Below are positions 23,593 through 43,685 of a DNA stretch of 64,000 bases, in pieces (positions within the stretch are counted from its first letter, which is position 1; each line of letters opens with the position of its first letter). The DNA comes from a virus. The stretch lies in IMG/VR virus record IMGVR_UViG_3300045988_174698, one strand, 5' to 3'. A program made the translations under genes and the position numbers. The notes beneath the pieces were generated by a model that saw nothing but the letters and a program-made list of their open reading frames with translations, did not search any database and had not been told where the DNA came from.

Positions 23593-23642
23593 AATTATAT
23601 TTTATTTAAATGAAATTTTCACTACCTAATTATTTATAAAAG

Positions 23643-25926: not shown

Positions 25927-25999
25927 AGTAGGTAACAGGATTCGAACCTGTGATATAGCTTTTGCAGAGCTGGGCCTTAACCAACTTGGCGATACCTAC
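25927..25999 (-). tRNA. tRNA-Cys (anticodon GCA), one C:A mismatch in the anticodon stem
   Basis: Acceptor GTAGGTA/TACCTAC. T-arm ACAGG-TTCGAAT-CCTGT. Anticodon loop CTGCAAA. Confidence 0.55.
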
Positions 26000-26004
26000 A
26001 TGTG

Positions 26005-26095
26005 CGGTAAGGGTGGGATTCCAACCCACGCAGCGATTTCTATACGCTCTAATGCATTTCAAGTGCATCCTCTTAAAGCTCTTGAGTACCTTACC
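26005..26095 (-). tRNA. tRNA-Ser (anticodon TGA), class II with long variable arm
   Basis: Acceptor GGTAAGG/CCTTACC. Anticodon stem ATGCA/TGCAT, loop CTTGAAA. About 20-nt variable arm. T-arm GTGGG-TTGGAAT-CCCAC. Length 91 nt. Confidence 0.7.
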
Positions 26096-26133
26096 AAATT
26101 TATCTATCTATAAACTTTCTAGTAAGTTATTTG

Positions 26134-26206
26134 CTGGACCGATAGGATTCGAACCCACGTTACCCAAATTAACAGTTTGGTGCTTAAACCACTCAGCCAC
26201 AGTCCA
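26134..26206 (-). tRNA. tRNA-Asn (anticodon GTT)
   Basis: Anticodon stem CCAAA/TTTGG, loop CTGTTAA. T-loop TTCGAAT. The acceptor stem has one G-U pair. Confidence 0.6.
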
Positions 26207-26358
26207 GTACATTTTATATATTTATTACAGATAACTCTGCAAAAGTATTTGCAGAAATATTATAAATTAATTAGTCGAGAATGATAGTAATGCTCTATCC
26301 CCTAGAAATCCCAAATTTCTCGTGCTACTTCCACACCCCATTCTCGATAAACTATCCT

Positions 26359-26592
26359 TTATTCAAGGATAGCGTTTAATTTTGCAAGAACACCTTCGTT
26401 TTTCTTACGAATGTTTTCAAGAGCTTCTTTTTCAGCTTGAGCTGCTTTGATTTCCTCGTCTCTTGCTGCAATTTCTAATTCTGCAGAAGCATTTACTTCT
26501 TTAAGACCATCAATTGCAGTTTTGAAAGCATTTAAAACATTGTCTACTTTCTTAGACAGATCTACAGATGTTTTACTTTTTGAATTAAACAT
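26359..26592 (-). CDS. hypothetical coiled-coil protein
   Basis: 77-aa ORF, Ala/Glu/Lys-rich (EIAARDEEIKAAQAEKEALE). Sits inside the tRNA cluster. Confidence 0.3.
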   Translation of the reverse strand: MFNSKSKTSVDLSKKVDNVLNAFKTAIDGLKEVNASAELEIAARDEEIKAAQAEKEALENIRKKNEGVLAKLNAILE

Positions 26593-26649
26593 GTTTAATA
26601 GTTTTTTAAATTAATGCTGTGAGGAGATTTTTGGGACCCCCAATAATAG

Positions 26650-26721
26650 TGAACCATATGAGACTCGAACCCCTCTATTTCCTTGCAAAGGAAATGTGCT
26701 CGCCTTTACACTACATGGCCC
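26650..26721 (-). tRNA. tRNA-Ala (anticodon TGC) with a G3:U70 pair
   Basis: Acceptor GGGCCAT pairs with ATGGTTC, which gives the Ala identity element G3:U70. Anticodon stem TTTCC/GGAAA, loop TTTGCAA. T-arm GGGGTTCGAGTCTC. Confidence 0.65.
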
Positions 26722-26728
26722 AAAATAC

Positions 26729-26914
26729 TTAAAGTTTAATACGAAATTGTCTTATTTTATTACATATTTTACAACGCTGTATATAAACTTTTTCAACTTT
26801 AACTGGGCGACTTTGATAGTCATTTTCAAACACCTTTTTTAATTTTTCTTCAACTGTCTCCCAATCATGTACATGAAATTTCAATTCAAACCATTTCTTT
26901 ATAAGTTCTAACAT
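26729..26914 (-). CDS. hypothetical zinc-ribbon protein
   Basis: 61-aa ORF with a C-terminal CKICNKI. Confidence 0.25.
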   Translation of the reverse strand: MLELIKKWFELKFHVHDWETVEEKLKKVFENDYQSRPVKVEKVYIQRCKICNKIRQFRIKL

Positions 26915-26941
26915 ATTATAAAGTTTTTAATAAAATTTTAG

Positions 26942-27023
26942 AGCCTCCTGTCGGACTCGAACCGACGCGTTCAAATGAAGACGGATTACAAAACCGTTGC
27001 AGTCGCCGCTGTGCCAAGGAGGC
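26942..27023 (-). tRNA. tRNA of uncertain identity (possibly Thr-TGT) with atypical 14-nt extra region
   Basis: Acceptor GCCTCCT/AGGAGGC is perfect. T-arm GTCGG-TTCGAGT-CCGAC is perfect. Best anticodon fold is ACGGT/TCCGT with loop TTTGTAA (TGT). The 82-nt length and long variable region are unusual for tRNA-Thr. Confidence 0.4.
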
Positions 27024-27139
27024 TTATAAACACTATCGTAGTTTGCACGTCTGATTTTTATTGCCACAGAAACTCCATACAAATGATCAATTTATATGTT
27101 AAGAGTTGTTACGCCGCTAATGTCAAATTTAGAAATAAC

Positions 27140-28018
27140 TTATAATGACATAAATTGGTTATAGTTATCCTTGTATCCTATAGAAGTATTCACAAGAAGC
27201 TCGCCATGCATGCTTCTACCAGGCATTGGCACCATAAAGTCATTTCCATATATGTTAGTTAAAACACTTAAATATACTTCTGGAGCAGGAAACATTCCTC
27301 ACTCAAATTTAAGGTAAACCTTATTGTTATAGTCTCTAGCGTTTCTAAGACTTTGTATCTTATTTGGAAATGTAAGATTACCAAATGACTCTGTGGAGAG
27401 TACATTATATCGTTGTCGTAGCTCTTGATATTTTTCTCTAAGATATAAAAGTCTAGATGTGTTTTCCTTAGAAGAATCATAACATTGTATTCTTGTTTTT
27501 ACAGCCAGTGCTTCTAGTTTAATTAAGTGAAGCTGGTGCATAAACTTTTGTCTCTCAACTAGATCATCTGGAACATTATCAAAAGGACATATATCTATAA
27601 AGATCCCTTGGTTAAAGGTAAAATGACCTTCTAAATCCTTTTTGTGAATACATGTTGTGTCACTTCTTCTTAACTTCGTACAGCAATAAAAGGTACTGTC
27701 TGTTCAGTCATTTTGAACAAAATATGGATAATTCAACTCTTTAACTGCACACTCTAAAAATCTATCATAGTCTGTTCTAGGCATAGCAATATCAATATCA
27801 TCGTCCCATGGAATAAATCCACCATGTCTGACAGCACCAAGTAATGTTCCTCCATCTAAATAGTGCTTCAAATGATATTTATCACAGATATTTTTAAACT
27901 GTCATAGCAAATCTAGCTCAACTCCTCAAAGTTCTTTTCTTTCTTTAGACACCAAGAATCCATTTTTTACTTCTGCTTCAAAAAAGTTATCTGGTAATTT
28001 AATATTTAAGTTTACCAT
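27140..28018 (-). CDS. LicD-family phosphotransferase (LicD/FKTN/FKRP nucleotidyltransferase-fold)
   Basis: Reconstructed through at least five TGAs (frame checked). [40 protein letters not shown] is the LicD signature including the DxD motif. The two standard-code ORFs 27268..27480 and 27299..27541 are fragments of it. Confidence 0.6.
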
Positions 28019-28679
28019 TAAATAAAAATTTAGCCAACTCTAAATCATCAGGACTTGTAATTTTAAAATTCATAAGTTCTCCCGAGATATATAAGCATTT
28101 ATTTCCATTATGCTCATATAAGTCAGGTAAAGTCTGATAATTATCTATATTTTTAATCTTTGTAATTATATTATAAAGGCTTCTAAGCATAAAAGTTTCA
28201 GGAGTCTGTAAGATAGCAATTGGCTCCGTTCTTACTCCAGGAACATGTAACGAACTAAGATCTTTTAAAGTGCTAACTGTTGGAATGTATGGAACAACAG
28301 CCGAATTATTAGAATCACAAGAAGACAAACATCTTGTAATTAAATTTGAAGTGAAAAAAGGTCTAACAGAATCATGAAACATAATTTTTTCAATAGAAGG
28401 ATAGTAAGTCATTATGTATTCAAGACCAGCAATTCTAGATCTTAAGCATGAGTACCCTCCTTCTATAATTTTGATATAAGAAAATGGAAAAAGCTTTCGA
28501 AGAATAGGAATATATTCAGGTAGAGTAACTATAACAATTATGTTAAACAGTCTTAACCTAACAAACTTTTCAACAGTCAAATATACTATAGGATGTCCAT
28601 TAATATCTATAAACTGCTTAGGAATATTCATTCCTACCCTAGTTCCTTTTCCAGCAGCATTAATAACTAAGGCATTCAT
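27999..28679 (-). CDS. IspD/TarI/LicC-like cytidylyltransferase (CDP-alcohol synthase family)
   Basis: N-terminus MNALVINAAGKGTRVGMNIPKQFIDINGHPI matches the MobA-like nucleotidyltransferase motif of IspD/TarI/LicC (AAGxGxRxG...PKQ). Its 3' end overlaps the LicD-like start by about 20 nt. Confidence 0.6.
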   Translation of the reverse strand: MNALVINAAGKGTRVGMNIPKQFIDINGHPIVYLTVEKFVRLRLFNIIVIVTLPEYIPILRKLFPFSYIKIIEGGYSCLRSRIAGLEYIMTYYPSIEKIMFHDSVRPFFTSNLITRCLSSCDSNNSAVVPYIPTVSTLKDLSSLHVPGVRTEPIAILQTPETFMLRSLYNIITKIKNIDNYQTLPDLYEHNGNKCLYISGELMNFKITSPDDLELAKFLFNGKLKY

Positions 28680-28723
28680 ACACTTAATCTTATACTCTTT
28701 TTCTTTTAATACTAGTTAATACA

Positions 28724-28975
28724 CTAAAATAAAGATTCATTTCTATTCCTAAAGTAAAGGATAGTACATAGTACTATTACCACAAACCAGATAAAAAGAA
28801 ATAGTAATATTAGACAGTTAATTAGTACTGTTGCCATAGTATTATTTATTATATGTGAGAAATATTTATTTAATTTTAATAGTTGCTCGTTAAAGATTCG
28901 AACTTTAACTTTCACGTTCAAAGCGTGACGTGCACAAACCAAGTACACCAACGAGCAGAAGCAAATCCGCAGCAA
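28724..28975 (-). CDS. hypothetical membrane protein
   Basis: 83-aa hydrophobic ORF. Confidence 0.25.
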   Translation of the reverse strand: MLRICFCSLVYLVCARHALNVKVKVRIFNEQLLKLNKYFSHIINNTMATVLINCLILLFLFIWFVVIVLCTILYFRNRNESLF

Positions 28976-29085
28976 GAATCCACCACAAATATAAAGATAA
29001 AAGTCAATATAACCAAATATTTGTACACTTATTTCTATAATTTGTACAAATTTTTGAGATTACTATTCAGTATAATAACTAACAC

Positions 29086-29445
29086 TTACTTTTGCTTCTC
29101 TTTTAAATAAGTATAGATAATAATGATCATTAAAGTGATAACAATCATCACGAAGAAATATGTTAATACTGTAACAAAGAAGTTTATCCCTAATATGTTA
29201 TTAACAAAGTGTAATAAATAGCACACTAGAACACAATACAACAAAATTCTATGATAAATACAAAATTTGAATGTAAGAGATAAAACAATGAGACCTATTA
29301 GTACTACCATAACTGTTACCAAATCTACACAACTAATAATTACTGTAGAAATTGTATAGTAACGTAGTAGTATTTTAAATAATATGTTTAGTGCTAGTAA
29401 GAAAGGTGCAAAACGAATGAATATTAAACTAAGTTTCTTTAACAT
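29086..29445 (-). CDS. hypothetical polytopic membrane protein
   Basis: 119-aa ORF with about four hydrophobic helices. Confidence 0.3.
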   Translation of the reverse strand: MLKKLSLIFIRFAPFLLALNILFKILLRYYTISTVIISCVDLVTVMVVLIGLIVLSLTFKFCIYHRILLYCVLVCYLLHFVNNILGINFFVTVLTYFFVMIVITLMIIIIYTYLKEKQK

Positions 29446-29563
29446 TCTATAAAATAAAATATCAAATTAATAATTAATATAATAATCACCCAGCTAATTA
29501 TTGTTAATAATCTCGATAAACACCCTAATCTAGTAAGAATATCATGTGATGTAAGTTTCATTA

Positions 29564-29824
29564 TTAAAATTCAGGTTCAAACATACTAGACGCCCATGAC
29601 CAATAGCCACCATCTTCTTCTATAGAATACAAATAGCCATCATCAGGAAGTCTACCGTCTTGCATTTTATGCCAATATTTAGCTTTACTAATAGTGCATA
29701 CTCTTCCTCCATATTCTGTAAGCATATTTTCTGCAAACCAGTACGAATAATCGAGATCCTTACATCCTGGATCATACTTTTCCTTTATTAAAACATTATC
29801 TCCAATTTTGTATAATGATTCCAT
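29564..29824 (-). CDS. hypothetical protein
   Basis: 86-aa ORF rich in Trp and Tyr. Confidence 0.3.
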   Translation of the reverse strand: MESLYKIGDNVLIKEKYDPGCKDLDYSYWFAENMLTEYGGRVCTISKAKYWHKMQDGRLPDDGYLYSIEEDGGYWSWASSMFEPEF

Positions 29825-29842
29825 AAGTTAAAAAGATTTTTG

Positions 29843-29875
29843 TGTGGCTGATGAGAATTGAACTCATGTCCATTC
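29843..29875 (-). other. isolated tRNA 3'-end-like fragment (T-arm plus acceptor 3' strand)
   Basis: The minus strand reads ATGAG-TTCAATT-CTCAT followed by CAGCCAC. No upstream D-arm or anticodon arm, and the flank is AT-rich. Confidence 0.25.
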
Positions 29876-30580
29876 AACTATTAATAATAATTTTATTTAC
29901 ATGCTAGGTTATTTTATTCTCCTATTCCGAAAAATAACAAAACGTATCAGATAGTTTTTATCTTATCTCCTACAACTTATCTGAAATAACTCGGTTCTAT
30001 AATAGTAGTTAGTAATGATTAACTTACATCATCTGCATTAATCTATACAGAAAATCTTTGTCTATTATTTCTCCAGACTTGGATAGCTTAAGCTGCAAAA
30101 GCTACTTGAGCACGCATAGGAGTTGCAAGAGGCATAACCTTGTTAGCCATCTTACGTACAGTGTTCTTAGCGTTTATTTTTTGGTCCAGTTGTTAAAGAA
30201 GTTATACCAGCTCCTGCATGAATTGTTATCAACTATCTTGAATGTCAAAAACCTGGCAGGCCCAAAGACAGGGCAGTTTATACTTATACCCTAGAAGTGG
30301 TCCATAATAGCTAAAGTGTTTAATGCTCTAATTATATAGCAGCGACTAGTATACTGTTATACTTTTCTTGTAACTTCAAGAACTATTACTAAAACTTCAA
30401 TGTGAAGTTCCTAAAAGCCACTTGAGTATTTTTTGGGTTCACTCAAGAATACCGTGTTTTATTGTCGGGATCAAACAACCAAACTACCACCTTTCTATAT
30501 ACAAAGGCAAACTCATACTATCTGGCGTAACCCGTTACTATTATTTATATACCGCTAAGTAACCTAATGCGGTTTACTTT

Positions 30581-31171
30581 TTATCCTTTAAAGTATAATA
30601 ATGTTGGATTATTCTTATGCACATCAATATTCGGATATCGTTTTGCAAAAGTTGACATATCAAAAGGAGTTGTAATTAAATGAAAACCATTTTTAGTAGG
30701 AATCAAAGCCTTAAACTTTGAACCAATAGGTTGACATTCTCGTTCAATAAACAGTAAGATATTATTTACCGCACGATTATCTGTAGGTCCATCAATATCA
30801 ACAACCCATGTTTTATCGTCTTTATTACATGTTGATCCACAAGCATGATCATAACAACGATAAACTTCTTCCATCTGATCATATCGTATTCGTTCAGCAA
30901 GATTCTCTAAACAAACTAACGCTACATCTTTATAGCTTCGCTTGTTTAAATGAATATAAGCACGTGCTTTAAATATAGAACACATTTGCTTAATTTCCTT
31001 TTTCTTGCCTTCGAAATATTCAAGAGAACGTATACAATAGGAACGAACTAAACGGTTATTTACTCCTATATCGGGATTATCCTTTGATCTTTGTATAATC
31101 TGAAGATAATAAAAATCATCTTTAGATTCAAATTTCAAAAGACTTTTAATTAAGTCAAAATTATCTACCAT
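30581..31171 (-). CDS. hypothetical protein
   Basis: 196-aa ORF; no secure family match by eye. Confidence 0.3.
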   Translation of the reverse strand: MVDNFDLIKSLLKFESKDDFYYLQIIQRSKDNPDIGVNNRLVRSYCIRSLEYFEGKKKEIKQMCSIFKARAYIHLNKRSYKDVALVCLENLAERIRYDQMEEVYRCYDHACGSTCNKDDKTWVVDIDGPTDNRAVNNILLFIERECQPIGSKFKALIPTKNGFHLITTPFDMSTFAKRYPNIDVHKNNPTLLYFKG

Positions 31172-31250
31172 TTTCTTTAATAAGTAAATTTAATTTGCAT
31201 ATACAAAATATTTTTATTATATTTGATTTAATTATTAAATCAAATAAATC

Positions 31251-31628
31251 ATGAATATATTAATAAAAACATGTACGGTTTGTAAAGAATCAAAAGCCTT
31301 AGATGAGTTTCCAAAGCATCCACAGCATAAAGATGGATACAATAGTGTTTGTAAAAAATGTATGCAAAAAAGCAATAAAAAATGTAGATCAAATAAAAAG
31401 ATTCATTTTATAAAGAAAATAGGAGGAGAATGTACAAATTGTAAAATAAAATTGACTGAAAATAATTGACCAATATTTGATTTTCATCATATAGATCCTT
31501 CCCAAAAAGAAGTTTCTTGATCAACATTAAGAAATTGAAGTAATGATAAAATTGAAAAAGAATTAAACAAATGCACTTTACTATGTGCTAATTGTCATAG
31601 ACTTTTACACGCAAAGACTAAAGATTAA
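31251..31628 (+). CDS. HNH endonuclease (zinc-finger plus HNH), free-standing
   Basis: ORF 31251..31469 continues through four TGAs to a TAA at 31626-31628 (frame checked). CTVCKES...CKKC Zn knuckle, then FDFHHIDP...LLCANCHRLLH HNH motif. It is the only plus-strand gene inside the minus-strand block. Confidence 0.65.
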
Positions 31629-31681
31629 CTTTAGTCTTTTATTTTTATCTATTACTATTATTCTAGTCAATAAAAAATAGA

Positions 31682-31725
31682 GCCTACACCTCCGATCAAG
31701 GAGATGTAGGCAATGTTTATCGTCT
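31682..31725. terminator. hairpin terminator between convergent genes
   Basis: GCCTACACCTCC-gatcaa-GGAGATGTAGGC (12-bp stem, one mismatch) followed by a T-rich run. It sits between the 3' ends of the plus-strand HNH and the minus-strand small ORF. Confidence 0.45.
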
Positions 31726-31839
31726 TTTAAGAGCTTCATAATTTTTATATGGGCCCCTCCTCTTAGTAAAGGTTTTTCCTTTACCGTGTTAGAGGAAACT
31801 ATAGTGTTCTACTATAGAGACTACACCTTTGATTTAGCA

Positions 31840-32017
31840 GGTAGGCTTTTCTGCTTTGTAATTAGGTAAGTATAGAGCATTATGCCTTACTCTACGGTAA
31901 ACAGTTCTATACGAAAGTTCTCCTGTCTTTTTATCAAAAACAGGGTTGCCTTCTTCATCTACTTTAACTTCTTTAAAGGGCATTGTAATAGCCTTCATTT
32001 TAGGATGTGCCATCTGT
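31840..32017 (-). CDS. small hypothetical protein (59 aa)
   Basis: MAHPKMKAITMPFKEVKVDEEGNPVFDKKTGELSYRTVYRRVRHNALYLPNYKAEKPTC. Below the track's length cut-off. Local GC is higher than the flanks. Confidence 0.2.
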
Positions 32018-32022
32018 GTTAT

Positions 32023-33216
32023 TTAATTATTTTTACCTTGTTTTTTAGCAATATCAAGGAGCATATTCAGTCCTACAGCATCCATAGGATTAGCAGATGC
32101 TCCTTCTTTACCTCCAATAATCATTACTTCAGGAACCCAACGAACATTTGAGTTTGCTAATGCCTGAGCTACACCAATTGTGGTTTCTTTATCAATTGTT
32201 GCTCTTTGCAATGGGTCCAATCCAGCAAGTACTTTAGCTCGTGCTGCTGCAGCTTCTGCCATGCCCTGAGCTTCAATACGTTTTGCATCTTCCTTTGCCT
32301 TTAAAGCAGAAAGACGAGCTACTTCATATTCCTGTTCAGCCTTAGTAACCTCTACAGCCTTAATTTTCTCCTGTTCCCACTTAGCCTTCATAGCAAGTGC
32401 CTTACCCTCCTCTTCAGCACGAATTGCCTCTTGAGCAGCAGCAGCTGACTTCGCACGACTAGTTTGAATAAGCATATTTGCTTCCTGTTGCTGAGCAATC
32501 TGCCTATTTACTTTATCAGAATATGCAATCTTTGATACAGCTACCTGACCAATCTCTAGTCCATAATAAGCAAATGGGGAGGATTCACTACGCTTGTAAC
32601 CTCCTGCTGCTAATGAGTCAGGAATTAGTGTAGCTACATTAATAACTTTCTTTTCTCCAGTAATTGCATCAAGTACTTCGCTACGCTTGATTGCAGTTTT
32701 GTAGACACCATTATTTAACTGATCAGTAATATATTCAATCAAGTCATTCTTCTTCTCTGCATACGATTCAAAAGCAGACATCAGAGGACCTGAAGCATAA
32801 ATTACCTTAGTAACAGTCGGACGAACAAGATCATTCATTAGACGATCCATACCATTATAATCAGTCTGAATACGAGCGAGGTATTTAGGGTCAGTAGGAA
32901 GTTTTACACGAAGTGATCCATAAATCATACCATCTGAAGCATCATTGAAGATTACAGGAATAGGTTTTCCCTGCTGATCGCCAGCCTCAGAGTCAGATCC
33001 GAACCACAACTGTTGAGTTTTATAGTAAGTAGTGGTTTTGCCCCACCACTGCCAGTGAAAACCAGGACTAGTCCAGTATTCCATGTTACCAGTAAACGGA
33101 TACTGATTGACTACAATCGTCTCATTCTTTACATCTTCCCCGATTTTACCCAGAGAAACAACACAGAAAATAGCAAATACTACTACAAGAGCAGCAACAA
33201 TTTTTTTGAAATTCAT
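32023..33216 (-). CDS. SPFH/band-7 (stomatin/prohibitin/HflKC-like) membrane protein
   Basis: N-terminal membrane anchor, then an SPFH core and a long Ala/Glu/Lys-rich coiled coil (AVEVTKAEQEYEVARLSALKAKEDAKRIEAQGMAEAAAARAK). Confidence 0.7.
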   Translation of the reverse strand: MNFKKIVAALVVVFAIFCVVSLGKIGEDVKNETIVVNQYPFTGNMEYWTSPGFHWQWWGKTTTYYKTQQLWFGSDSEAGDQQGKPIPVIFNDASDGMIYGSLRVKLPTDPKYLARIQTDYNGMDRLMNDLVRPTVTKVIYASGPLMSAFESYAEKKNDLIEYITDQLNNGVYKTAIKRSEVLDAITGEKKVINVATLIPDSLAAGGYKRSESSPFAYYGLEIGQVAVSKIAYSDKVNRQIAQQQEANMLIQTSRAKSAAAAQEAIRAEEEGKALAMKAKWEQEKIKAVEVTKAEQEYEVARLSALKAKEDAKRIEAQGMAEAAAARAKVLAGLDPLQRATIDKETTIGVAQALANSNVRWVPEVMIIGGKEGASANPMDAVGLNMLLDIAKKQGKNN

Positions 33217-34622: not shown

Positions 34623-34648
34623 AGTGTTATGTGCTTATTGTTAGGTTT

Positions 34649-35820: not shown

Positions 35821-36486
35821 TTATATTCCTAAAGGTTTATCCTTTAGCAAGTTTAATGCTGTTTGTAAACCATCTTCTAAACAAGCAGAATAGTGTCTCT
35901 GCCGTACTTTACCAGGTCCAGAATATTCCTCAAGTGTAACTCCCAAGTTTAATTTTGTGATTGTCCAAAAATAGGATAGTGTTTGATCTAAGTGAACTAG
36001 TACAACTGTTCCACACTCGTTTCTGAGCCAGTATTGTAATTCTGTTTGATAGAGAGCTGGGATTAAATTGTCATACAGTTCACAGGTTCTTTTTGAATAA
36101 TGATAACTAATATTGTTCTCTGAACTTAAACTGTATTGTGACATATAATACTGTTGCTGACAGGTAGGATATCCTTTTCTAACAGCTATTTTAACAGTTT
36201 CAAAACTAATTCTTTTCATAAAAGTGATTCAATGAGCAGAAAGATAAATTACAGAGTCATCAGATAGAATTACTTTAGCTTTCGTATTCCTAGGTACATC
36301 CCACTTTTGAAGTTTTCTAACTAATGCTTTTAGAGATCCACACTTTCCTCTATAACAAGAGGAATATTCTGGATAATTAGGACATTCCTTAAACGGTACC
36401 CATGAGTCAATACTACTAACATACCAAAGGGACTTACCAGAGTAACTTAAATAAATTAAAATATTATGAGGTTTAGGAAAATACAT
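35821..36486 (-). CDS. hypothetical protein, TGA-containing
   Basis: ORFs 36229..36486 and 35821..36219 are in one frame (both codon phases 0 mod 3) and join through a single TGA (..YLSAH W ITFMKRISF..). 221 aa. Confidence 0.35.
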
Positions 36487-36497
36487 ACATTTAATTA

Positions 36498-36746
36498 TTA
36501 TTTATAGTAAATCCATTTATATGTTGTATCTTGCTCTACAATTGTATACTCTTTTTTTATTTTTCCTTGTTCATACTTATTCATTATATAATTAACAGTA
36601 AAGTCCCCGACTAGACAATTAATAGATAAAAGAACTATTATTATAGAGAGTAAAACTCTTGATCCTAAAAGTACAAGATTGTCATCATCATAACTTATTA
36701 CGTTGATTAAAAATAATGATGTAACAATGAGTATAACAGATAACAT
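36498..36746 (-). CDS. hypothetical membrane protein
   Basis: 82-aa hydrophobic ORF. Confidence 0.25.
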   Translation of the reverse strand: MLSVILIVTSLFLINVISYDDDNLVLLGSRVLLSIIIVLLSINCLVGDFTVNYIMNKYEQGKIKKEYTIVEQDTTYKWIYYK

Positions 36747-36756
36747 AGTTTATCGA

Positions 36757-37053
36757 TTAGTTGCTGACAGTGTTTAAATACTTAATAAAAGTCTTATTCT
36801 TGATATTGTTTAAAAACCCACTGAAGTTTTTATTAAAAGATATACTATCATAAGTAAACTCAGATTCCCATACATCTGGATAACTAAGTTTAGTAATATA
36901 CTTACGTTTTATCTCGTCTGAGAACCATGATTTATATTCTTTTCGAAAGATGTATACAAATATACTAATATCTTTACCAAAAATAGGATCACAATAAGTA
37001 TATTCTTTATGATATACTATCTTATCACTAATAGTTTTAGGAAATATATTCAT
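36757..37053 (-). CDS. hypothetical protein
   Basis: 98-aa ORF. Confidence 0.25.
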   Translation of the reverse strand: MNIFPKTISDKIVYHKEYTYCDPIFGKDISIFVYIFRKEYKSWFSDEIKRKYITKLSYPDVWESEFTYDSISFNKNFSGFLNNIKNKTFIKYLNTVSN

Positions 37054-37530
37054 AGAAGATAGATTAAAAATTCTAGGATTTGGGCGTTAAGCAGTCCATA
37101 TGCTCGGTTACATGACCACACTTTCAACTTCCGTATGTTTCAGCTATTAAGTTAGTTCCCCTCATTTAAAGATATACGAGCCTAATCGAATATCTTCCTA
37201 GAATAAATAGAAACTTTCTTGTAAATGAAAGCTGTAATGGGCTGAGATAGTGACCCTTACTCAGTCTGCGTTCATAATAGATTCTGAGATCATGGCAATA
37301 CATTAAGTGCTCGCTCCCTACAAATTCTATTTAATCACACGAATAAAAACTCGTAGCAGACATAGAATAATTATATTCTATTAACTTTTGAAACTTTAAA
37401 TTAAAATGAAGGTTACTTCATTCTCTTAAGGTTTCAGGTAAATAATACTAAGCTGTAGCTGTGCTGCTTGTTAACAGTATCCTTCCTCTACTATTAGTTT
37501 AACAGAATTAACAATCCTATATCACTAAGC

Positions 37531-38247
37531 TCAGTATTCAGTGAAATTATTATAACAGAGTCTATAGGCTTTTAACCATTCTGTTTTTGTATGTTTGTGA
37601 GGCATTTGAAAATTACGAAGAGACTTATAAAAACGAGGTGCATCATTAACCTCATCACATATTACATAGAAAGCTTGTATAATATCTCTCTTAAATACCT
37701 CTGATGTTTTTAGAATTTTACTAACTCTACGAAGAGCTTTGAGTCTCTCAAGAGCATACGCTATTAGTATACCATCAACATGAAGCTTACCACTCTGAAA
37801 ATCCTCAGTATTATACCTACCCAAAATTAACTGTATCGCAGATCTAATTTCAAGTTCTGGATTGTCTTTTAAAAAGTCCCTTAAAAGACAGTAGGAATTT
37901 TTACCTGTTTCACAGTAAGCATAAAGGTAATCCTTAGTTAACCATCTTTTATGTCCTGAATTAAACCTAATAGCTAAGCTAATTGGGTCTTCTTTTGAGT
38001 TTATTTTTAACATTCCTAACTCATAATGACGACTAGTATCAATGGAACATAATGTACAGAACGCTTTATAACGATGCTGTCCGTCTACTATATAATTATC
38101 CTTTACAAAGATTGGTGGAATCCAATCTCCCCTTTTCATAGACTGCATAATCTCCCTCACATGAGCAGGATTAGTTAGTCTGTTTGCAGATAAAAATTCG
38201 AGTGAAGGACTAGGTTTGTCCAAAATAATAATTTCTTCGGTTTTCAT
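37531..38247 (-). CDS. ParB-like nuclease domain protein
   Basis: IILDKPSPSLEFLSANRLTNPAHVREI...IFVKDNYIVDGQHRYKAF has the DGxHR core of the ParB/Srx fold. Confidence 0.55.
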   Translation of the reverse strand: MKTEEIIILDKPSPSLEFLSANRLTNPAHVREIMQSMKRGDWIPPIFVKDNYIVDGQHRYKAFCTLCSIDTSRHYELGMLKINSKEDPISLAIRFNSGHKRWLTKDYLYAYCETGKNSYCLLRDFLKDNPELEIRSAIQLILGRYNTEDFQSGKLHVDGILIAYALERLKALRRVSKILKTSEVFKRDIIQAFYVICDEVNDAPRFYKSLRNFQMPHKHTKTEWLKAYRLCYNNFTEY

Positions 38248-38248
38248 A

Positions 38249-38821
38249 TCAATTCCATATTATAAGACCTGAAAGCATTTGAGAACTGTCTTTATAACAA
38301 TAAAGCTTAGAGATTGTATATAAGGACTGAGTATGTTGTATAAATTGAACATATCTAGACCCTATTCCAATTTCTTCAGTAGATAACTTCTCAGCTTTTA
38401 AAGTATTTTTATAAAGAGTCTTGTTAAGAGTATCAATTGTTTTCTCCCTACCTCTAGAACCCCGAGTAGATACAGTAAAAAGTAAAGCCTTAGTACCTGA
38501 CAGCATAGTATTCATTCTGTAGAATACATTCATTATAGAATACTGACCATATAAAATAGTCTCTTCAAGATCAACGTCCATAACATGAGTAGGGAAAACA
38601 TCATCAATATAAGCTCTAACAATCCAGTTTTCAACTGGATGAATATCAACTAAAGTAATATTGTCTGGTAAAAAATACTTCTGATATTGCTGTAAAGCTA
38701 CTTTAGGACTATTTCCAGCTAAAGCTGTTAACTTTTTATTTTCAAATTTCTTAAGACAACCAAATAATTTGTTTTGGACATATCTCTTTGCTTGAGTAGA
38801 ATCTAAATCGTAGCTTTTCAT
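38249..38821 (-). CDS. hypothetical protein (co-directional with the ParB-like gene)
   Basis: 190-aa ORF immediately downstream of 37531..38247. Confidence 0.3.
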   Translation of the reverse strand: MKSYDLDSTQAKRYVQNKLFGCLKKFENKKLTALAGNSPKVALQQYQKYFLPDNITLVDIHPVENWIVRAYIDDVFPTHVMDVDLEETILYGQYSIMNVFYRMNTMLSGTKALLFTVSTRGSRGREKTIDTLNKTLYKNTLKAEKLSTEEIGIGSRYVQFIQHTQSLYTISKLYCYKDSSQMLSGLIIWN

Positions 38822-38845
38822 CTGTATTAGTATTTTTTAATTATG

Positions 38846-38918
38846 TGGGCCCTACAGGACTTGAACCTGTAATCTCTTGATTATGAGTCAATTGCTTCAA
38901 CCATTAAGCTAAGGGCCC
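38846..38918 (-). tRNA. tRNA with anticodon CAT (Met, fMet or Ile2)
   Basis: Acceptor GGGCCCT/AGGGCCC. D-arm GCTT-AATGGTTG-AAGC. Anticodon loop CTCATAA. T-arm ACAGG-TTCAAGT-CCTGT. Confidence 0.65.
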
Positions 38919-40259
38919 TTGCGGATATTTAATAGTGCTTACAGCAAACGTCTTTACACACTAATAGTAAGCTCCCCTTTCGGTATATTTGCCACTAATA
39001 ATTAAATATCCTTAAAAAAGACTATAACATTTTCTTATTGGGAGGCCAGGATCTATAATATACCTCCAGTTATCCAAATATATTGCGCAATAGTTGGTCC
39101 TTAGAGTTGTATCCCTTCATTCAGGCCAAGTGAAACATCTTGGGAAATGTGTACTGTTCTATGATCACTCAAACAGTCGCTTATAGTCTTTTGAAAACAT
39201 AAATTCTATATAAGTAGATAGTCTACTAACTTCCACTTATCAGCAGATAAAACTGGTAAATTATTTTATTTGGTAATGAATGTATATTAGTGACTATAAG
39301 AGTGGTCAAACTCTTATAGTCTAGATATTACTAAAGCGTGTTGTTACACCTAAAGAAGTACTATAAGTATTGCTAGTTATAGTACCGTAAGTCATTAACT
39401 TACCTTCATTGTAGGGAATCCAGCTGCGGCTTTTCAGGTTCTTAACTTGACTTCACTAGCTACTTACTCTTATATTTCAGATTCCTGACTTCGAGTCTAG
39501 TCTTTCACCATTATTTAAGTATACCTACAGTTTTTATTTGAGGAGTAAACTGTGAAACTTATACCTCACCACATACTGCTACTCATCTACTCATTAAAGA
39601 TAGCTACCTCCAAGCTCACTACTTTAGTAATAAAAATCTCCTCTCTTACCAAGTCATTGAGGAGATGAAAAATATGACTCTTGATTTGGGCAAGTACTTA
39701 ATGATCCAGGTTATATCATTACAATTCGTAGCATCATCTGTTGTAGGAATTTCACCTAACTCACCTGGTAGCATCGTTACTCATTTAATGCTTTGGCTGA
39801 GCTGCTTTGTAATAATCATTACTCACTAAGATTCACTTGGTCTTTTACTTAAGCCTAAAAGCCTCTCTATATAAGAAAACATATAGATGTTTTTGTAGAT
39901 AATCTCTATCTACCGAGACAGCCTTTATTTATACTCCCTGCTTATACTGGAGTATAATAATAAACTAAGAAGAGGTTTTACCGAGTTCCGCGGTTTTTTA
40001 TTTAGAGCGCCCTGAAGTCGTTACCTTCACCTTGGGGTCCCTCTAAGCTATAGCAAAGTATAGCAAATAGGTATCATTTAGTTTTCCTAACTACATTTCC
40101 TATTGATACATCTTATAGTATCCTACCTCTCTATACCTTTCTATGTATATCCTTAATTAGTCATGTAACCATTAAGATCTTAGTTTATAAAGGTTATCTG
40201 CTTTTGTTATATCTATACATTGGAGTCCTAATAACAGGTTACAGCCCGTGTATTAAAAA

Positions 40260-40628
40260 CTAGTTTCCTTCTTTTTTATCTTCCGAAGCAATAGAATCTA
40301 AAAGTCTATTAATAACTTCAAAAGACTTTTCAGGGAGCTCCTGTAATGCCTCAGAATTTTTAATTACTTCTGTTGCAATTGTAACTCCAAAAATTTGGTA
40401 ACAGGTAGATCTTGAAGGAACCAAAATAGTTAACACCATGGAAATTATCCCAGCGATACCAGTATATTTCCACCATCTCTTGGCTGTCTTCAATTCACAT
40501 TCATCACAATAATACGCAGTAGATACGATCATAAAAATACTCAGGCATACAATAAAAGTTGCTAATGCAATGATATATACTCCTCCAAAAACAGAACATA
40601 AATATAACCACCAAGCTAGATTTTCCAT
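40260..40628 (-). CDS. hypothetical membrane protein
   Basis: 122-aa ORF with two or three hydrophobic segments. Confidence 0.25.
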   Translation of the reverse strand: MENLAWWLYLCSVFGGVYIIALATFIVCLSIFMIVSTAYYCDECELKTAKRWWKYTGIAGIISMVLTILVPSRSTCYQIFGVTIATEVIKNSEALQELPEKSFEVINRLLDSIASEDKKEGN

Positions 40629-40686
40629 TATTTATTAATTATGTTGATTATTATTAAAGTTTCGGATTTCTAAGGCATTTGAATTT

Positions 40687-41055
40687 TTATTCTAGTAAAT
40701 TTAACGCTATTATTAAAGCTTCTCCCAAAGCATTTTCATACAACATGAAAAGCTCTTCCGTAAGTTTAGTGTCACTATTGATTACTGAATTTGGAGTATA
40801 AATGATATAGGCATAGTATCTGATTTGGTCTTTATAAACAGCAATAATAGAGATATGAATCCCTTTATCATCTCTTAACCACTCACTAAGTTCTTCCTGT
40901 AAAGGAGCATAGCAGCTAAAATTGGGAATGTACCCAATACCTTCACTATAAGTTTGGGTATATAAACTGCCCGTAGTATCATAGTAAACTCTGCTTGTTC
41001 CATTATAGCCTTTTTCCTTCGCAAGTTTGGCAGTGTTATAATGTACAAATTCCAT
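40687..41055 (-). CDS. hypothetical protein, family A (paralog of 22584..23006)
   Basis: MEFVHYNTAKLAKEKGY and APLQEELSEWLRDDKGIHISII...ENALGEALIIALNLLE are shared with 22584..23006. Confidence 0.4.
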   Translation of the reverse strand: MEFVHYNTAKLAKEKGYNGTSRVYYDTTGSLYTQTYSEGIGYIPNFSCYAPLQEELSEWLRDDKGIHISIIAVYKDQIRYYAYIIYTPNSVINSDTKLTEELFMLYENALGEALIIALNLLE

Positions 41056-41142
41056 AAGATGTATTTTTTAATTTTAAAAGTCCTCAGCTTAAAAATGAAT
41101 ATGAGTTACCACCCTGTGTTGTAGTGAAAACCACATATAGTC

Positions 41143-41334
41143 TTAATTGTTGTTGAACTTGAACTTAGCTAGTGTGTTAACAACAACACGTACTGCTACT
41201 ACAGTATTGATAACAGGGATCATTATTAGTACAAAAGCTGTTGTTGCATCTATATCTTCCCGCTCGACTAAATATACACCTGTTACTAAAGCACTAAATC
41301 CATAAATAATGGTGAAAAGTATCAAAAAAATCAT
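41143..41334 (-). CDS. hypothetical membrane protein
   Basis: 63-aa hydrophobic ORF. Confidence 0.2.
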   Translation of the reverse strand: MIFLILFTIIYGFSALVTGVYLVEREDIDATTAFVLIMIPVINTVVAVRVVVNTLAKFKFNNN

Positions 41335-41357
41335 TGGTTTAATATATTAGTTGAATG

Positions 41358-41440
41358 TGCAGGTAGAGGGACTCGAACCCCCACTTCTTTCGAAATATCG
41401 TCCTAAGCGATACGTGGCTGCCTAATTTCACCATACCTGC
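41358..41440 (-). tRNA. tRNA-Leu (anticodon TAG), class II
   Basis: Acceptor GCAGGTA/TACCTGC. Anticodon stem TATCG/CGATA, loop CTTAGGA. 13-nt variable arm. T-arm GGGGG-TTCGAGT-CCCTC. Confidence 0.7.
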
Positions 41441-41523
41441 AAAATATAATAACTAAGTTGCAACGTATATTCTATTATTTCTTTTTGTTGTTGAATCGAA
41501 CTTTCATATTTTGTATTATATGT

Positions 41524-41727
41524 TTAAACGAGGCTAACTAAGCTCCCACAAATACCACAATATCTTAGATACCAACCACAGTAACTAGATTCATCATAAA
41601 TGTAAATACAATCACATTCACCTGTCTTAGCATACTTTTCTTTAGCAGCTTTGACTTCTTCCTCAGAAACTTCTATAAGTTTAGTTCCTACACCATCATT
41701 TACTTCTCTATACAATTGTTGTTTCAT
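41524..41727 (-). CDS. hypothetical Cys-rich protein
   Basis: 67-aa ORF. Confidence 0.25.
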   Translation of the reverse strand: MKQQLYREVNDGVGTKLIEVSEEEVKAAKEKYAKTGECDCIYIYDESSYCGWYLRYCGICGSLVSLV

Positions 41728-41924
41728 TATGAAATTCCTTTAATAAATATTTCTCCTATAGCATTAGGTTTATAGATAGGTTTAGCATTAGGCCATGTTC
41801 CTACAAATATTACACGAACTAAAACTCTCCAATCTGATTCCCATACAGATCCTCTTGATATTTCTTTTACCTTATTGTATATCTTAATACAATCTTCAGC
41901 TTCCTTCTTATGCTCAGTCTTCAA
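41727..41924 (-). CDS. hypothetical protein
   Basis: 65-aa ORF. Confidence 0.2.
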   Translation of the reverse strand: MKTEHKKEAEDCIKIYNKVKEISRGSVWESDWRVLVRVIFVGTWPNAKPIYKPNAIGEIFIKGIS

Positions 41925-42207
41925 CCGATTTTGAAGGACATCGTATAACTTGCTCGTAGATTAAATCTTTTTATGATATCTTCCCAGATAGTGAATGCAA
42001 TTATGACAATACATGATATCTACATGAGAACATGACAAACATGGATAGTCATACCTTATTTTTGAAAAATTTATCTTCATAATATTATTTAGCTAAAAAT
42101 TACTCACTCTAGCATTTTCTAACTAGTAATATAAGATAGCCTGTATGCCTACAGGAAGAGTACCTAACTAGTAGTCTCTTCCTTAGTTGATGTGTACACC
42201 ATCAGAG

Positions 42208-42426
42208 CTAAAGTTTTCTGCCGCACATTGGACAATATCTTATTTCCATTGAAAAAGACTCATCTTCTGATTCATAATCTAATGTAAATTCCCCGTTATC
42301 ATATTTACTAATTGTAAATTTCCGATAAATTCCTATATAATCGGTTTCACAAATAATATTTTCTATATATGATTTGTTTATTTCTTTTAAATCAGTATTC
42401 ACTATTTTATTACAATGTATACACAT
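42208..42426 (-). CDS. hypothetical zinc-ribbon protein
   Basis: 72-aa ORF with CxxC...CxxC (MCIHCNK...YCPMCGRKL). Confidence 0.25.
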   Translation of the reverse strand: MCIHCNKIVNTDLKEINKSYIENIICETDYIGIYRKFTISKYDNGEFTLDYESEDESFSMEIRYCPMCGRKL

Positions 42427-42464
42427 AATAATATAATATTACTTATTCTTCTATTAAATAATTG

Positions 42465-42550
42465 TACTCGGAGCGGGAATCGAACCCGCACGGCCATTAC
42501 TGGCCAAGGGATTTTAAGTCCCTCGTGTCTACCTATTCCACCATCCGAGC
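42465..42550 (-). tRNA. tRNA-Leu (anticodon TAA), class II
   Basis: Anticodon stem AGGGA/TCCCT, loop CTTAAAA. Variable arm with a GGCC/GGCC stem. T-arm GCGGG-TTCGATT-CCCGC. The acceptor has a G1-U72 pair. Confidence 0.65.
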
Positions 42551-42572
42551 AAATCAAATAAAATGATTAATG

Positions 42573-42646
42573 TGGACCCTACAGGGCTTGAACCTGTAAC
42601 CTACTGATTATGAGTCAGTTGCTCTAACCAACTGAGCTAAGGGTCC
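42573..42646 (-). tRNA. second tRNA with anticodon CAT (Met, fMet or Ile2)
   Basis: Acceptor GGACCCT/AGGGTCC. D-arm GCTC-AGTTGGTTAG-AGC. Anticodon stem ACTGA/TCAGT, loop CTCATAA. T-arm ACAGG-TTCAAGC-CCTGT. Confidence 0.7.
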
Positions 42647-42660
42647 GTAAAATAAATTTG

Positions 42661-42789
42661 TCTAATTGACAGGATTCGAACCTGCAGATGTTTTGATTAA
42701 CACCACATATTGTTTCAATACAGCCAAATTAGTTTTCATTTGACGAAGGGATATTAGTCCCTAGCGTATACCAATTCCGCCACAATTAA
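42661..42789 (-). ncRNA. atypical 129-nt tRNA-like RNA
   Basis: The ends pair as an acceptor stem (TTAATTG / CAATTAG, six Watson-Crick pairs plus one G-U). 3' T-arm GCAGG-TTCGAAT-CCTGT. 5' D-arm-like GCG...CGC. Anticodon-like hairpin AGGGA-CTAATA-TCCCT (6-nt loop, or 8-nt if the closing pair opens). These flank a roughly 60-nt insertion before the T-arm. Confidence 0.3.
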
Positions 42790-42925
42790 ACAAACTTATC
42801 TTTAACTTTAAAATGAAGGAGTGGGTGACTGTCACTCTAACAGTTACTAATACTAGTATAATGGCCTAGCAGCTCAGTGCCACAGTCTTCCGACACATTA
42901 GTAATGTATTTTTACTTCATCTTGC

Positions 42926-43028
42926 AGGTGTAACGGGATTCGAACCAGACATACGATTCCCTCAAGAGTTCTCTCTTAGCGTATCTCCGAAGTTGCCACC
43001 TCGGTGTTTTACCATTAAACTATACACC
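42926..43028 (-). ncRNA. atypical 103-nt tRNA-like element
   Basis: Acceptor GGTGTAT / TTACACC (6 bp). D-arm GTTT-AATGGTA-AAAC. Anticodon-like stem CCGAG/TTCGG with an 8-nt loop GTGGCAAC. A roughly 40-nt hairpin insertion (ATACG...AAGAG-AGAA-CTCTT...CGTAT) sits before a weak TTCGAAT T-arm. Confidence 0.25.
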
Positions 43029-43072
43029 TAAAACAAGTTGCAAATATAGCACTTAATTATTGAATATGCAAA

Positions 43073-43402
43073 TTATTTACAACTATGATAAACATGAAAA
43101 GGTCCACAATGAATTTTACCATTTACAGAAGTTTCTCTTCTATAAATAATTTGAAAAACATTTGGATGATCCTTTATATAGTCTTCGACTTGCTGAACTG
43201 AAGAGAATGTTGCCAATATTTCCCATTTGTTAGAAATCGCATAATATTTACAATCTTTAGCAAATTTCAACAAACTTTTAGTCACTTCTTTATCAAGAAA
43301 TGCTTTACACTCTTCAGCACTTTTACTTGACTGACACTGATCAAAATGAGGGCAATGATGACAATTATCTCGCCAATTTTCTTTCTTAGGAATCATAATC
43401 AA
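43073..43402 (-). CDS. hypothetical Cys/His-rich protein
   Basis: 109-aa ORF (NCHHCPHFDQC...HCGPFHVYHSC). Confidence 0.3.
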   Translation of the reverse strand: MIMIPKKENWRDNCHHCPHFDQCQSSKSAEECKAFLDKEVTKSLLKFAKDCKYYAISNKWEILATFSSVQQVEDYIKDHPNVFQIIYRRETSVNGKIHCGPFHVYHSCK

Positions 43403-43595
43403 GGATTTTTAACTCTACAGGTTCGTCTTCCCACTTTAATTCTCTTCCAATCAGCTTTTTAGCAGATCCTTTAGGTAAAGGAAGAGTCATACTATATGAA
43501 TACAAAGGAAGAAACCTTTCTAAAATTTCTGATCTAACTGGACGAAATTGAAAAATAGCTTCCATCCCATTCTTATCTACTGCTATCCATGGCAT
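43386..43595 (-). CDS. hypothetical protein
   Basis: 69-aa ORF. Confidence 0.2.
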   Translation of the reverse strand: MPWIAVDKNGMEAIFQFRPVRSEILERFLPLYSYSMTLPLPKGSAKKLIGRELKWEDEPVELKILDYDS

Positions 43596-43611
43596 ATCTT
43601 TATATTTTTAG

Positions 43612-43685
43612 TGATCCCAGAGAGGTTCGAACTCTCGACCCCTACATTAAAAGTGTAGTGCTCTAACCAACTGAGCTACGGGATC
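43612..43685 (-). tRNA. tRNA-Lys (anticodon TTT)
   Basis: D-arm GCTC-AGTTGGTTAG-AGC. Anticodon stem CTACA/TGTAG, loop CTTTTAA. T-arm GAGAG-TTCGAAC-CTCTC. The acceptor has one G-U pair. Confidence 0.7.

Follow-up and report, generated by a model that had tools for sequence, protein, structure and literature searches.

Among the closest described relatives of the gene reported here are the Sup-TCA tRNAs of phages, which have a UCA anticodon and read TGA as tryptophan; in crAss-like phages the recoding is concentrated in genes for structure and packaging and in late genes (PMC7886860; 10.1101/2021.08.26.457843; PMC12386605). Some opal-recoded zeta crAss-like phages are without a detectable suppressor, for which a divergent, undetected tRNA has been suggested (PMC7886860; PMC12386605), and in another published study suppressors were found in only 35-40% of recoded phages. 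Genomes that clearly reassign TGA or TAG but show no suppressor tRNA are reported in numbers from crAss-like and other recoded phages alike. Here we describe a tRNA(UCA) gene on the minus strand, at 12789-13226, of a 64,000-nucleotide (nt) stretch of the IMG/VR virus record IMGVR_UViG_3300045988_174698 (the window, to which all positions refer unless a contig is named). It resembles the published Sup-TCA genes in its anticodon, in the assignment of TGA to tryptophan and in the kinds of genes that are recoded; whereas the earlier reports list recoded genomes without a detectable suppressor, here the suppressor gene is present but split by an intron. The spliced product, a tRNA-Trp-like molecule, is probably the UGA decoder of the phage, with a second arm that would supply the CCA identity element to the tryptophanyl-tRNA synthetase (TrpRS) of the host.

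Group I introns inside tRNA anticodon loops are known from cyanobacterial tRNA-Leu(UAA), from Synechocystis tRNA-fMet (with I-Ssp6803I) and from Azoarcus tRNA-Ile. The predicted intron resembles such bacterial and plastid introns in its location in the anticodon loop, in having a U that pairs with G at the 5' splice site and a terminal G, and in the P/Q/R/S cores that a sub-threshold Rfam alignment indicates; it follows U34, presumably the position of the tRNA-Leu(UAA) intron. Some of its relatives carry a PD-(D/E)XK (PF11645) endonuclease open reading frame (ORF), as in the I-Ssp6803I case, although the link to that PD-(D/E)XK enzyme is one that we presume. Different here are the host gene, which is a phage nonsense-suppressor tRNA, the presence of three unrelated introns at one site, and endonuclease ORFs that contain TGA and so would need the very tRNA that they interrupt.

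The second arm has precedents of several types. Class II tRNAs (Leu, Ser, Tyr, Sec) likewise have an extra hairpin between the anticodon and T arms, but the loop of their variable arm is short and unconstrained in sequence and its attachment tighter, whereas here the body is Trp-type, the hairpin has a fixed, 7-nt anticodon-like loop, and the linkers are of 2-7 nt on the 5' side and 3-5 nt on the 3' side. The Hirsh UGA suppressor, Escherichia coli tRNA-Trp G24A, is changed in its D arm and decodes with CCA; in both cases UGA is read by tryptophan with a CCA anticodon loop kept available for TrpRS, but here the decoding anticodon is UCA and the CCA lies on a separate arm. Anticodon-loop mimics outside tRNA occur in the E. 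coli thrS operator and the yeast AspRS mRNA (PMC9976931). Those hairpins, like the one proposed here, copy an anticodon loop and are read by the cognate synthetase via tRNA identity rules, but they lie in mRNA and regulate translation, whereas ours lies inside a tRNA and would serve aminoacylation. The components are of known kinds (phage suppressor tRNA, anticodon-loop group I intron, long variable arm), while their combination and the anticodon-loop copy appear undescribed; neither an intron-split suppressor nor a CCA-loop arm turned up in full-text literature searches, the coverage of which mostly leaves out subscription journals, such that an earlier description is possible.

Recoding and the split tRNA(UCA) gene

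The window derives from a crAss-like phage of the zeta type, in many genes of which UGA stands for tryptophan. The window has a G+C content of ~30%, and its nucleotide matches in GenBank phages are weak ones to crAss-like phages only; related IMG/VR contigs (those used in the comparisons bear L-numbers) span 100-176 kb, which, together with their many introns, fits the 'zeta' crAss-like group of Yutin et al. (PMC7886860). ORFs with many in-frame TGA codons and almost no TGG occupy 1-12.8 kb (minus strand) and 51.9-64 kb (plus strand), with TGG being in use in most genes of 13.3-45 kb. The features on which the argument rests are as follows.

12789-13226, minus strand: probable opal suppressor tRNA(UCA), full gene (5' exon, group I intron, 3' exon), from intron-less relatives and from ARAGORN on the spliced sequence
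13194-13226, minus strand: 5' exon, 33 nt, conserved to U34 in all relatives with divergence straight after
12848-13193, minus strand: predicted group I intron, 346 nt, without ORF, ending in G (..GGUAAG), between U34 and C35
12789-12847, minus strand: 3' exon, 59 nt, comprising C35 A36 A37 A38, the arm-1 3' strand ACCGU, linker AUUG, arm 2, linker CGGU and the remainder given below
12818-12834, minus strand: arm 2 (UAGGG CUCCAAA CCCUA), a hairpin in the variable region
13250-13280, minus strand: promoter-like motif of the Bacteroidota type (TTTG-N19-TAtcTTTG), also conserved in L001 and L007, with 23 nt between it and the suppressor tRNA gene downstream
62529-63998, plus strand: large terminase gene, truncated at the window end, with 7 in-frame TGA and 1 TGG

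The terminase, which is of the crAss-like type, was used as a test case for the assignment of TGA. Aligned with four standard-code crAss-like terminases, its TGA codons fall in columns WWWW, WWWK, WWWY and other aromatic columns, from which we conclude that UGA is read as tryptophan. The earlier note's premise that UGA is a sense codon here is thus borne out, and both the alignment and the codon counts of the TGA-rich, TGG-poor ORFs place in-frame TGA at tryptophan positions, as befits a phage with an opal suppressor tRNA-Trp(UCA). Among the exceptions to TGG use in the middle block is a gene at 27140-28039 (minus strand), which adjoins tRNAs, appears LicD-like by eye only, and has 4 in-frame TGA inside a block that mostly uses TGG; recoding is therefore not cleanly split by genome block.

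The 5' third of a tRNA lies at 13226-13194, and ~350 nt away, at 12834-12789, are a CUCCAAA hairpin, a T arm and the acceptor strand that matches. Intron-less relatives were found in viral contigs using the D-arm 19-mer as the sole query. In close relatives the 5' piece is common up to ..GCGGUCUU, after which the sequences diverge, some having an endonuclease ORF there, and the intron-less relatives read A26-GCGGU-CUUCAAA-ACCGU-linker-NNNNN-CUCCAAA-NNNNN-NGGU-T arm. The two window exons, when joined, give the same architecture with a length of 92 nt (92-95 nt in the relatives), and it is the sequence of the intron-less relatives that defines the exon junction as U34|C35 and the gene as a three-part one. 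The 5' exon contributes the acceptor strand GCGAGCU, the D arm (GUGU/AAUGGUA/GCAC), A26, the arm-1 5' strand GCGGU, and C32 U33 U34; after arm 2 and its linkers, the 3' exon ends with the T arm (CUCUG/UUCGAAU/CGGAG), the acceptor 3' strand AGCUCGU and the discriminator G73. The mature tRNA, the CCA end of which is not encoded, has the anticodon loop CUUCAAA and, after in-silico removal of the intron, a complete cloverleaf with acceptor stem, D arm, a 5-bp/7-nt anticodon arm with U33, and T arm. Its acceptor is Trp-type, with G73 and G1.U72 in the window, compared with A1-U72 in 15 of 18 relatives and G73 in all 18.

ARAGORN draws the joined exons as a 93-nt UCA cloverleaf with the CCA hairpin as a variable arm, whereas the unspliced gene in the window was missed by ARAGORN in default mode and by Rfam at the gathering threshold. 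The earlier note, which flagged 25927-43685, had considered that a tRNA for UGA was not identifiable; the split tRNA(UCA) lies outside that range. The note had also singled out a 'CCA-loop module' at 12817 as a candidate non-standard decoder, and was right that this hairpin matters, but it is the variable arm of the split tRNA(UCA) and not a decoder in its own right. Another parse of the gene, with an intron between positions 26 and 27 and the CCA hairpin as the anticodon arm, was rejected because it left CGGUCUU unexplained and because the intron-less relatives show the junction at U34|C35.

The intron is assigned to group I, with self-splicing predicted; the latter is indirect, being based on the exact joining of the exons to the sequence of intron-less homologues. 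In a 501-nt search the Rfam Intron_gpI model gave a full-length match (18.5 bits, E=0.021; gathering score 50) with the P/Q/R/S cores aligned, the R element being GUAGAGACUAAAUGCCAC and the S element GAUAUAGUCC; an assignment of these elements to UCCAGACUACAAAC and AACUAUAGUGG was ruled out by the same alignment. The match was not found in larger Rfam searches. P1 has 4 bp: a U.G pair formed by the last exon base, U34, with neighbouring C-G, U-A and C-G pairs. The two features expected of group I introns at their ends, this U.G pair at the splice site and a terminal G, are both present. Comparison of three related ORF-less introns (window, L009 and L012) reveals six compensatory double changes, two each in P3, P6 and P6a, with both of those in the long-range helix P3 being from G-C to A-U.

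Across phages, three unrelated intron types, all ending in G, are found at the identical U34|C35 site. The first comprises ORF-less introns of 341-360 nt, the second introns of 527-707 nt with a PD-(D/E)XK (PF11645) or HNH-like endonuclease ORF, and the third a 186-nt intron. The PD-(D/E)XK ORF is present in the introns of L001, L007 and L016, and the HNH-like ORF in those of L003, L031 and L094. Both kinds of ORF within the suppressor-tRNA intron contain in-frame TGA (MSDW.., MKCEW.., ..NTW..), which implies that their translation needs the spliced, charged tRNA that they interrupt. A PDB sequence search with the intron endonuclease gave no match to solved structures. Blastn of the suppressor locus against GenBank phage records found no homologue of the locus, the matches being only short group I core segments in unrelated phages. 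Other RNA elements were noted in related phage contigs (loci L012 3660-3925, L003 899-1130, L124 829-898 and L115 7618-8177); a Pistol ribozyme (61 bits), ROOL RNA (190 bits) and further group I introns over the Rfam threshold occur in these contigs.

The second arm and the reading of UGA

For analysis of the second arm, a set of 18 distinct two-arm tRNAs was gathered by the D arm alone, and is thus unbiased for loop conservation. In this set 98.1% of cells are paired and 16 of the 26 pairs show double changes, values that none of 500 shuffles reaches. The arm-2 stem covaries at four of its five pairs and the arm-1 stem at two of five, while the arm-2 loop sequence UCCAAA, though absent from the search pattern, is invariant in 18/18; the full 7-nt loop, CUCCAAA, is that of the wild-type tRNA-Trp anticodon. 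On this comparative evidence both arms are under selection. Among intron-less tRNAs with the same D arm, arm 2 is present in 10 of 11 distinct tRNAs with a UCA anticodon and in none of 26 with other anticodons, eight of which are CCA. A looser pattern, in which the loop sequences were specified, retrieved at least 60 distinct two-arm tRNAs from phage contigs; their acceptor stems and D arms are of many kinds, but every one has G73. The arm-1 stem is common to single-arm Trp(CCA) and UCA relatives (GCGGU/ACCGY in L083, L049 and L092), which indicates that arm 2 is an added element, and in several phages a normal tRNA-Trp(CCA) adjoins the two-arm tRNA (e.g. L036 391-464), so that arm 2 is not needed for UGG.

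Six more two-arm versions were found in bacterial genome contigs (Bacteroides, Parabacteroides, Gemmiger and others); two-arm UCA/CCA tRNAs are present, for example, in L268 (Bacteroides neonati), L231 (Parabacteroides goldsteinii), L273 (Gemmiger formicilis) and L223 (a Phoenicibacter metagenome-assembled genome). Prophages or phage contigs binned in error are the probable source, and the records may hint at the hosts. The same D arm also occurs in other odd phage tRNA families (L043, L066, L067, L079, L030, L075 and L017; L022 and L103; L085 and L117), one with an additional hairpin (..CACC GAGA GGUG..) separating the D arm from the anticodon arm, another with two apparent T arms, and some with long variable arms and UAU-like loops.

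We propose that the precursor is probably transcribed from its own Bacteroidota-type promoter. The consensus TTTG-N18-21-TAnnTTTG, which we take to be that of Bacteroidota (Bacteroides) promoters, occurs 11 times in the window compared with 2.4 expected, a number reached in 0 of 100 shuffles; this enrichment suggests that the host belongs to the Bacteroidota and that its polymerase transcribes the phage genes. The intron would then have to self-splice before the tRNA can decode, and, since the mature anticodon loop requires splicing, the reading of UGA would depend on it. In the mature 92-nt tRNA, arm 1, with its UCA anticodon, would be used on the ribosome. Arm 2, a 5-bp hairpin in place of the 5-nt variable loop, would offer to host TrpRS the C34-C35-A36 identity element lost from arm 1, placing charging identity and decoding on two different arms. 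The major identity elements for bacterial TrpRS are G73 and the CCA anticodon (PMC9976931; PMC2965240), and a UCA anticodon removes C34 from that set. An identity copy for TrpRS is the simplest explanation for an invariant Trp loop on a stem of free sequence that is found only on Trp-type UCA tRNAs. Splicing in vivo, charging with tryptophan and the role of arm 2 are inferred here from comparison of sequences. A more general proposal is that the two jobs of the anticodon have been split, with the UCA arm decoding and a portable copy of the Trp loop being recognised by host TrpRS (an 'identity decoy', through which an unaltered host enzyme could charge a recoding tRNA), and with gating by the intron added in the zeta crAss-like lineage; this we hold tentatively, with rather less than even confidence.

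Several observations weigh against the assignment as UGA decoder with a TrpRS-directed second arm. The Rfam group I score of the intron is far below the gathering score, and the pattern behind the 60-member census, by specifying the loops, is not unbiased for loop conservation. Tryptophanylation of plain UCA suppressors has been described for E. coli and for Bacillus subtilis TrpRS (published work including PMC2965240), meaning that the mimic is not strictly required, and a single-arm UCA tRNA (L092) occurs in the same family. To act as proposed, arm 2 must reach the anticodon-binding domain of TrpRS through its two linkers. The TGA-containing genes are not strictly apart from those that use TGG, which makes the position of the suppressor at a 'boundary' only suggestive. 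Finally, our view covers 64 kb, whereas the genome probably measures about 165 kb, and a further UCA tRNA could sit in the part outside the window.

Of the alternatives, one has arm 2 bound by a partner other than TrpRS, such as a phage protein, a modification enzyme for A36-A37-A38 loops, or a host anticodon nuclease or defence factor, for which the arm would be bait or shield. An invariant loop on a covarying stem does indicate sequence-specific recognition while leaving the binder unspecified, and phage tRNAs interact with tRNA-targeting defences (general literature); we nonetheless regard such a partner as unlikely, the loop being exactly that of the Trp anticodon and present only on UCA tRNAs with G73, for which the simplest binder is the synthetase that reads that loop.

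It is less likely still that arm 2 is itself a functional anticodon arm, either in a two-conformer switch, in which one or the other arm stacks on the D arm to read UGG and UGA, or as the original arm of a tRNA-Trp(CCA) into which a UCA hairpin was inserted. Each loop is a perfect 7-nt anticodon loop, complete with U33 and A37, and each arm has one canonical junction, arm 1 following directly after A26 and arm 2 preceding a 4-nt stretch of variable-loop size. The arm-1 stem is, however, that of the single-arm relatives, which identifies arm 2 as the addition; a separate normal tRNA-Trp(CCA) often adjoins the two-arm tRNA; and homing introns target the loop of arm 1. Moreover, an anticodon with U34 can usually read UGG as well by wobble.

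That the split gene is a dead tRNA broken by a mobile intron, with UGA being read by a suppressor elsewhere, a host factor, or one of two tRNA-like elements described below (A and B), we consider very improbable. The partial view of the genome, the sub-threshold Rfam score of the intron and the presence of A and B as unexplained tRNA-like RNAs in the same phage leave some room for it, but the exons are conserved as well as in intron-less genes with every helix kept, the intron helices show compensatory changes, and three intron types with a terminal G share the identical site; A and B, for their part, lack UCA in a 7-nt loop, the loop of A varies, and B decays in relatives.

The ~4-nt linkers on both sides of arm 2 are, we presume, looser than the joints of tRNA-Ser variable arms. 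The two-arm tRNAs have a 7/5 fold with a normal D arm (4-bp stem, 7-nt loop) in contrast to the 8/5 arrangement and the 6-bp D stem with 4-nt loop of bacterial tRNA-Sec, so that they are not selenocysteine tRNAs, even though ARAGORN labels the intron-less forms 'tRNA-SeC(tca)'. The idea that UGA specifies serine or selenocysteine is hardly credible, despite the long variable arm and G73 being SerRS determinants (PMC5389517), because TGA replaces TGG throughout and lies at conserved Trp or aromatic columns.

If the gene is the UGA decoder as proposed, an intron-split suppressor that default ARAGORN and Rfam runs miss would be a concrete explanation for 'missing' suppressors, at least in this lineage; owing to the intron split and the extra arm such tRNAs may go undetected in recoded gut phages, and split-gene models could be used to look for them. 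The CCA loop on arm 2 would let a phage change its genetic code while relying on the synthetase of its host, which, if true, would amount to a new tRNA identity principle and a ready design for orthogonal or suppressor tRNAs. The anticodon-loop group I intron would put a splicing step ahead of code switching, with possible timing control, and the recoded endonuclease ORFs would set up a dependency loop between a selfish element and its host tRNA.

The tRNA array and elements A and B

ARAGORN detects 12 minus-strand tRNAs in the window, all of which Rfam confirms; these ordinary tRNAs are a normal phage set. They are listed here with the remaining RNA features.

23642-23714, minus strand: tRNA-Arg(TCT); ARAGORN, Rfam
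25926-25999, minus strand: tRNA-Cys(GCA), in the cluster 25926-26206; ARAGORN, Rfam
26004-26095, minus strand: tRNA-Ser(TGA), same cluster; ARAGORN, Rfam
26133-26206, minus strand: tRNA-Asn(GTT), same cluster; ARAGORN, Rfam
26649-26721, minus strand: tRNA-Ala(TGC); ARAGORN, with a weak Rfam match of 35.7 bits
26941-27023, minus strand: tRNA-Thr(TGT), 83 nt, with G1-C72, C2-G71 and U73; ARAGORN, Rfam
28882-28957, minus strand: tRNA-Gln(TTG); ARAGORN, Rfam
28986-29017, minus strand: Bacteroidota-type promoter-like motif, directly upstream of tRNA-Gln
29842-30263, minus strand: transfer-messenger RNA (tmRNA); Rfam 52.3 bits (gathering score 47), missed by ARAGORN
38845-38918, minus strand: tRNA with anticodon CAT, elongator or Ile2-like, non-initiator; ARAGORN, Rfam
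41357-41440, minus strand: tRNA-Leu(TAG); ARAGORN, Rfam
42464-42550, minus strand: tRNA-Leu(TAA); ARAGORN, Rfam
42572-42646, minus strand: second CAT tRNA; ARAGORN, Rfam
42661-42789, minus strand: element A, a 129-nt, tRNA-Leu-derived tRNA-like RNA; Rfam tRNA 32.8 bits
42925-43029, minus strand: element B, a 105-nt degenerate tRNA-like element; Rfam tRNA 34.7 bits
43041-43072, minus strand: promoter-like motif of the Bacteroidota type, 11 nt ahead of element B and conserved in L125
43611-43685, minus strand: tRNA-Lys(TTT); ARAGORN, Rfam

Every tRNA listed in the earlier note was recovered by ARAGORN and Rfam to within 1 nt, including one described as an 82-nt tRNA with a 14-nt extra region, which is the 83-nt tRNA-Thr(TGT) with its 14-nt variable region. 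The inventory was otherwise incomplete, with tRNA-Gln(TTG) and the tmRNA being overlooked, and tRNA-Arg(TCT) lies outside the range given for the array. Its account of A and B also agrees with ours, both being full Rfam matches with insertions in the variable region (~57 nt in A, ~38 nt in B) and loops of 6 or 8 nt. What it made of them fared less well: as neither has UCA in a 7-nt loop they were rejected as UGA decoders, nothing was found in support of frameshift suppression by the 8-nt loops, and the alternative that they are pseudogenes suits B but not A, the helices of which are kept by compensatory changes.

Both elements match the full Rfam tRNA model just above its gathering score of 29. 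Element A has an acceptor stem, D arm and T arm of tRNA type, an anticodon-type hairpin with a 6-nt loop and, in its variable region, three further hairpins (57 nt); its fold z-score is -3.0. Three variants are known, in the window, in L127 (= L342) and in L133, with three compensatory double changes among them, only 1 of 120 cells broken, and a column identity of 92%, compared with ~80% identity in the blastn matches between the window stretch and L127. The loop of the anticodon-type hairpin reads CUAAUA, CUAACA and UAAAAUAG in the three variants (6, 6 and 8 nt) in place of a 7-nt loop with U33 and a conserved anticodon, and this variation in both sequence and length implies that A is not a conventional decoder. 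Its D arm, discriminator A73 and anticodon stem resemble those of the adjoining tRNA-Leu(UAA), and we conclude that A is a selected, conserved and structured derivative of tRNA-Leu that probably does not decode.

Two other interpretations of A were rejected. ARAGORN in intron mode calls it a tRNA-Ile(aat) with a 41-nt intron, but the anticodon-type loop is not conserved, and we know of no phage mechanism for such an intron. A 25-codon ORF inside A is likewise not conserved, a 2-nt indel shifting the frame in L127.

Element B, in contrast to its perfect acceptor stem and D arm, has a 3-nt bulge in its T stem, an 8-nt loop (6 nt with an extra pair) where a 7-nt anticodon loop would be regular, and a 38-nt bipartite variable arm; ARAGORN did not call it in any mode, intron mode included. 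It is identical in L124, with only a 5' stump left in L125 and L126, and is best read as a decaying tRNA gene that heads a B-A-tRNA(CAU)-tRNA-Leu unit, the transcript of which likely starts at the motif at 43041-43072. Searches for further copies gave only the three A variants and one other copy of B, so that the power to detect covariation is low. In L127, a weak, degenerate tRNA-like element (4551-4620, 30.6 bits) lies immediately upstream of the A homologue, and decaying tRNA copies seem common in these arrays.

The array itself is being remodelled by mobile endonuclease genes, to judge from a close relative. At L124 3096-3830, a tRNA-Ile(TAT) and an endonuclease-like ORF stand where element A and the 5' half of the CAT tRNA would be; the ORF is HNH-like by eye only and seems to hold an in-frame TGA, and the 3' half is the sole remainder of the CAT tRNA.

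The two CAT tRNAs of the window are paralogues, and their G1-C72 pair together with the lack of a GGG/CCC anticodon stem indicates that neither is an initiator. The antisense strands of both match the plastid ycf2-leader family in Rfam; we take that leader to lie opposite trnI-CAU, and, if so, the CAT tRNAs may be tRNA-Ile of the lysidine type. The tRNA-Thr(TGT), with its 14-nt variable region (C UUC AUUU GAA CGC), a U.U mismatch at 31:39 and U73, is odd for a class I isoacceptor yet has a good tRNA score (48.8 bits). The tag reading frame of the tmRNA, read by hand off the Rfam alignment, ends ...AQVAFAA before a stop, and its counterpart in L127 (3714-4331) is 618 nt long, perhaps because of an insertion.

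On the minus strand, the stretch next upstream of the suppressor gene (13299-17229) holds a cluster for an amidoligase, a glutamine amidotransferase, a phiEco32-like COOH-NH2 ligase and a peptidase C26, followed by an IMPDH/GMP-reductase-like gene and an HD-domain gene.

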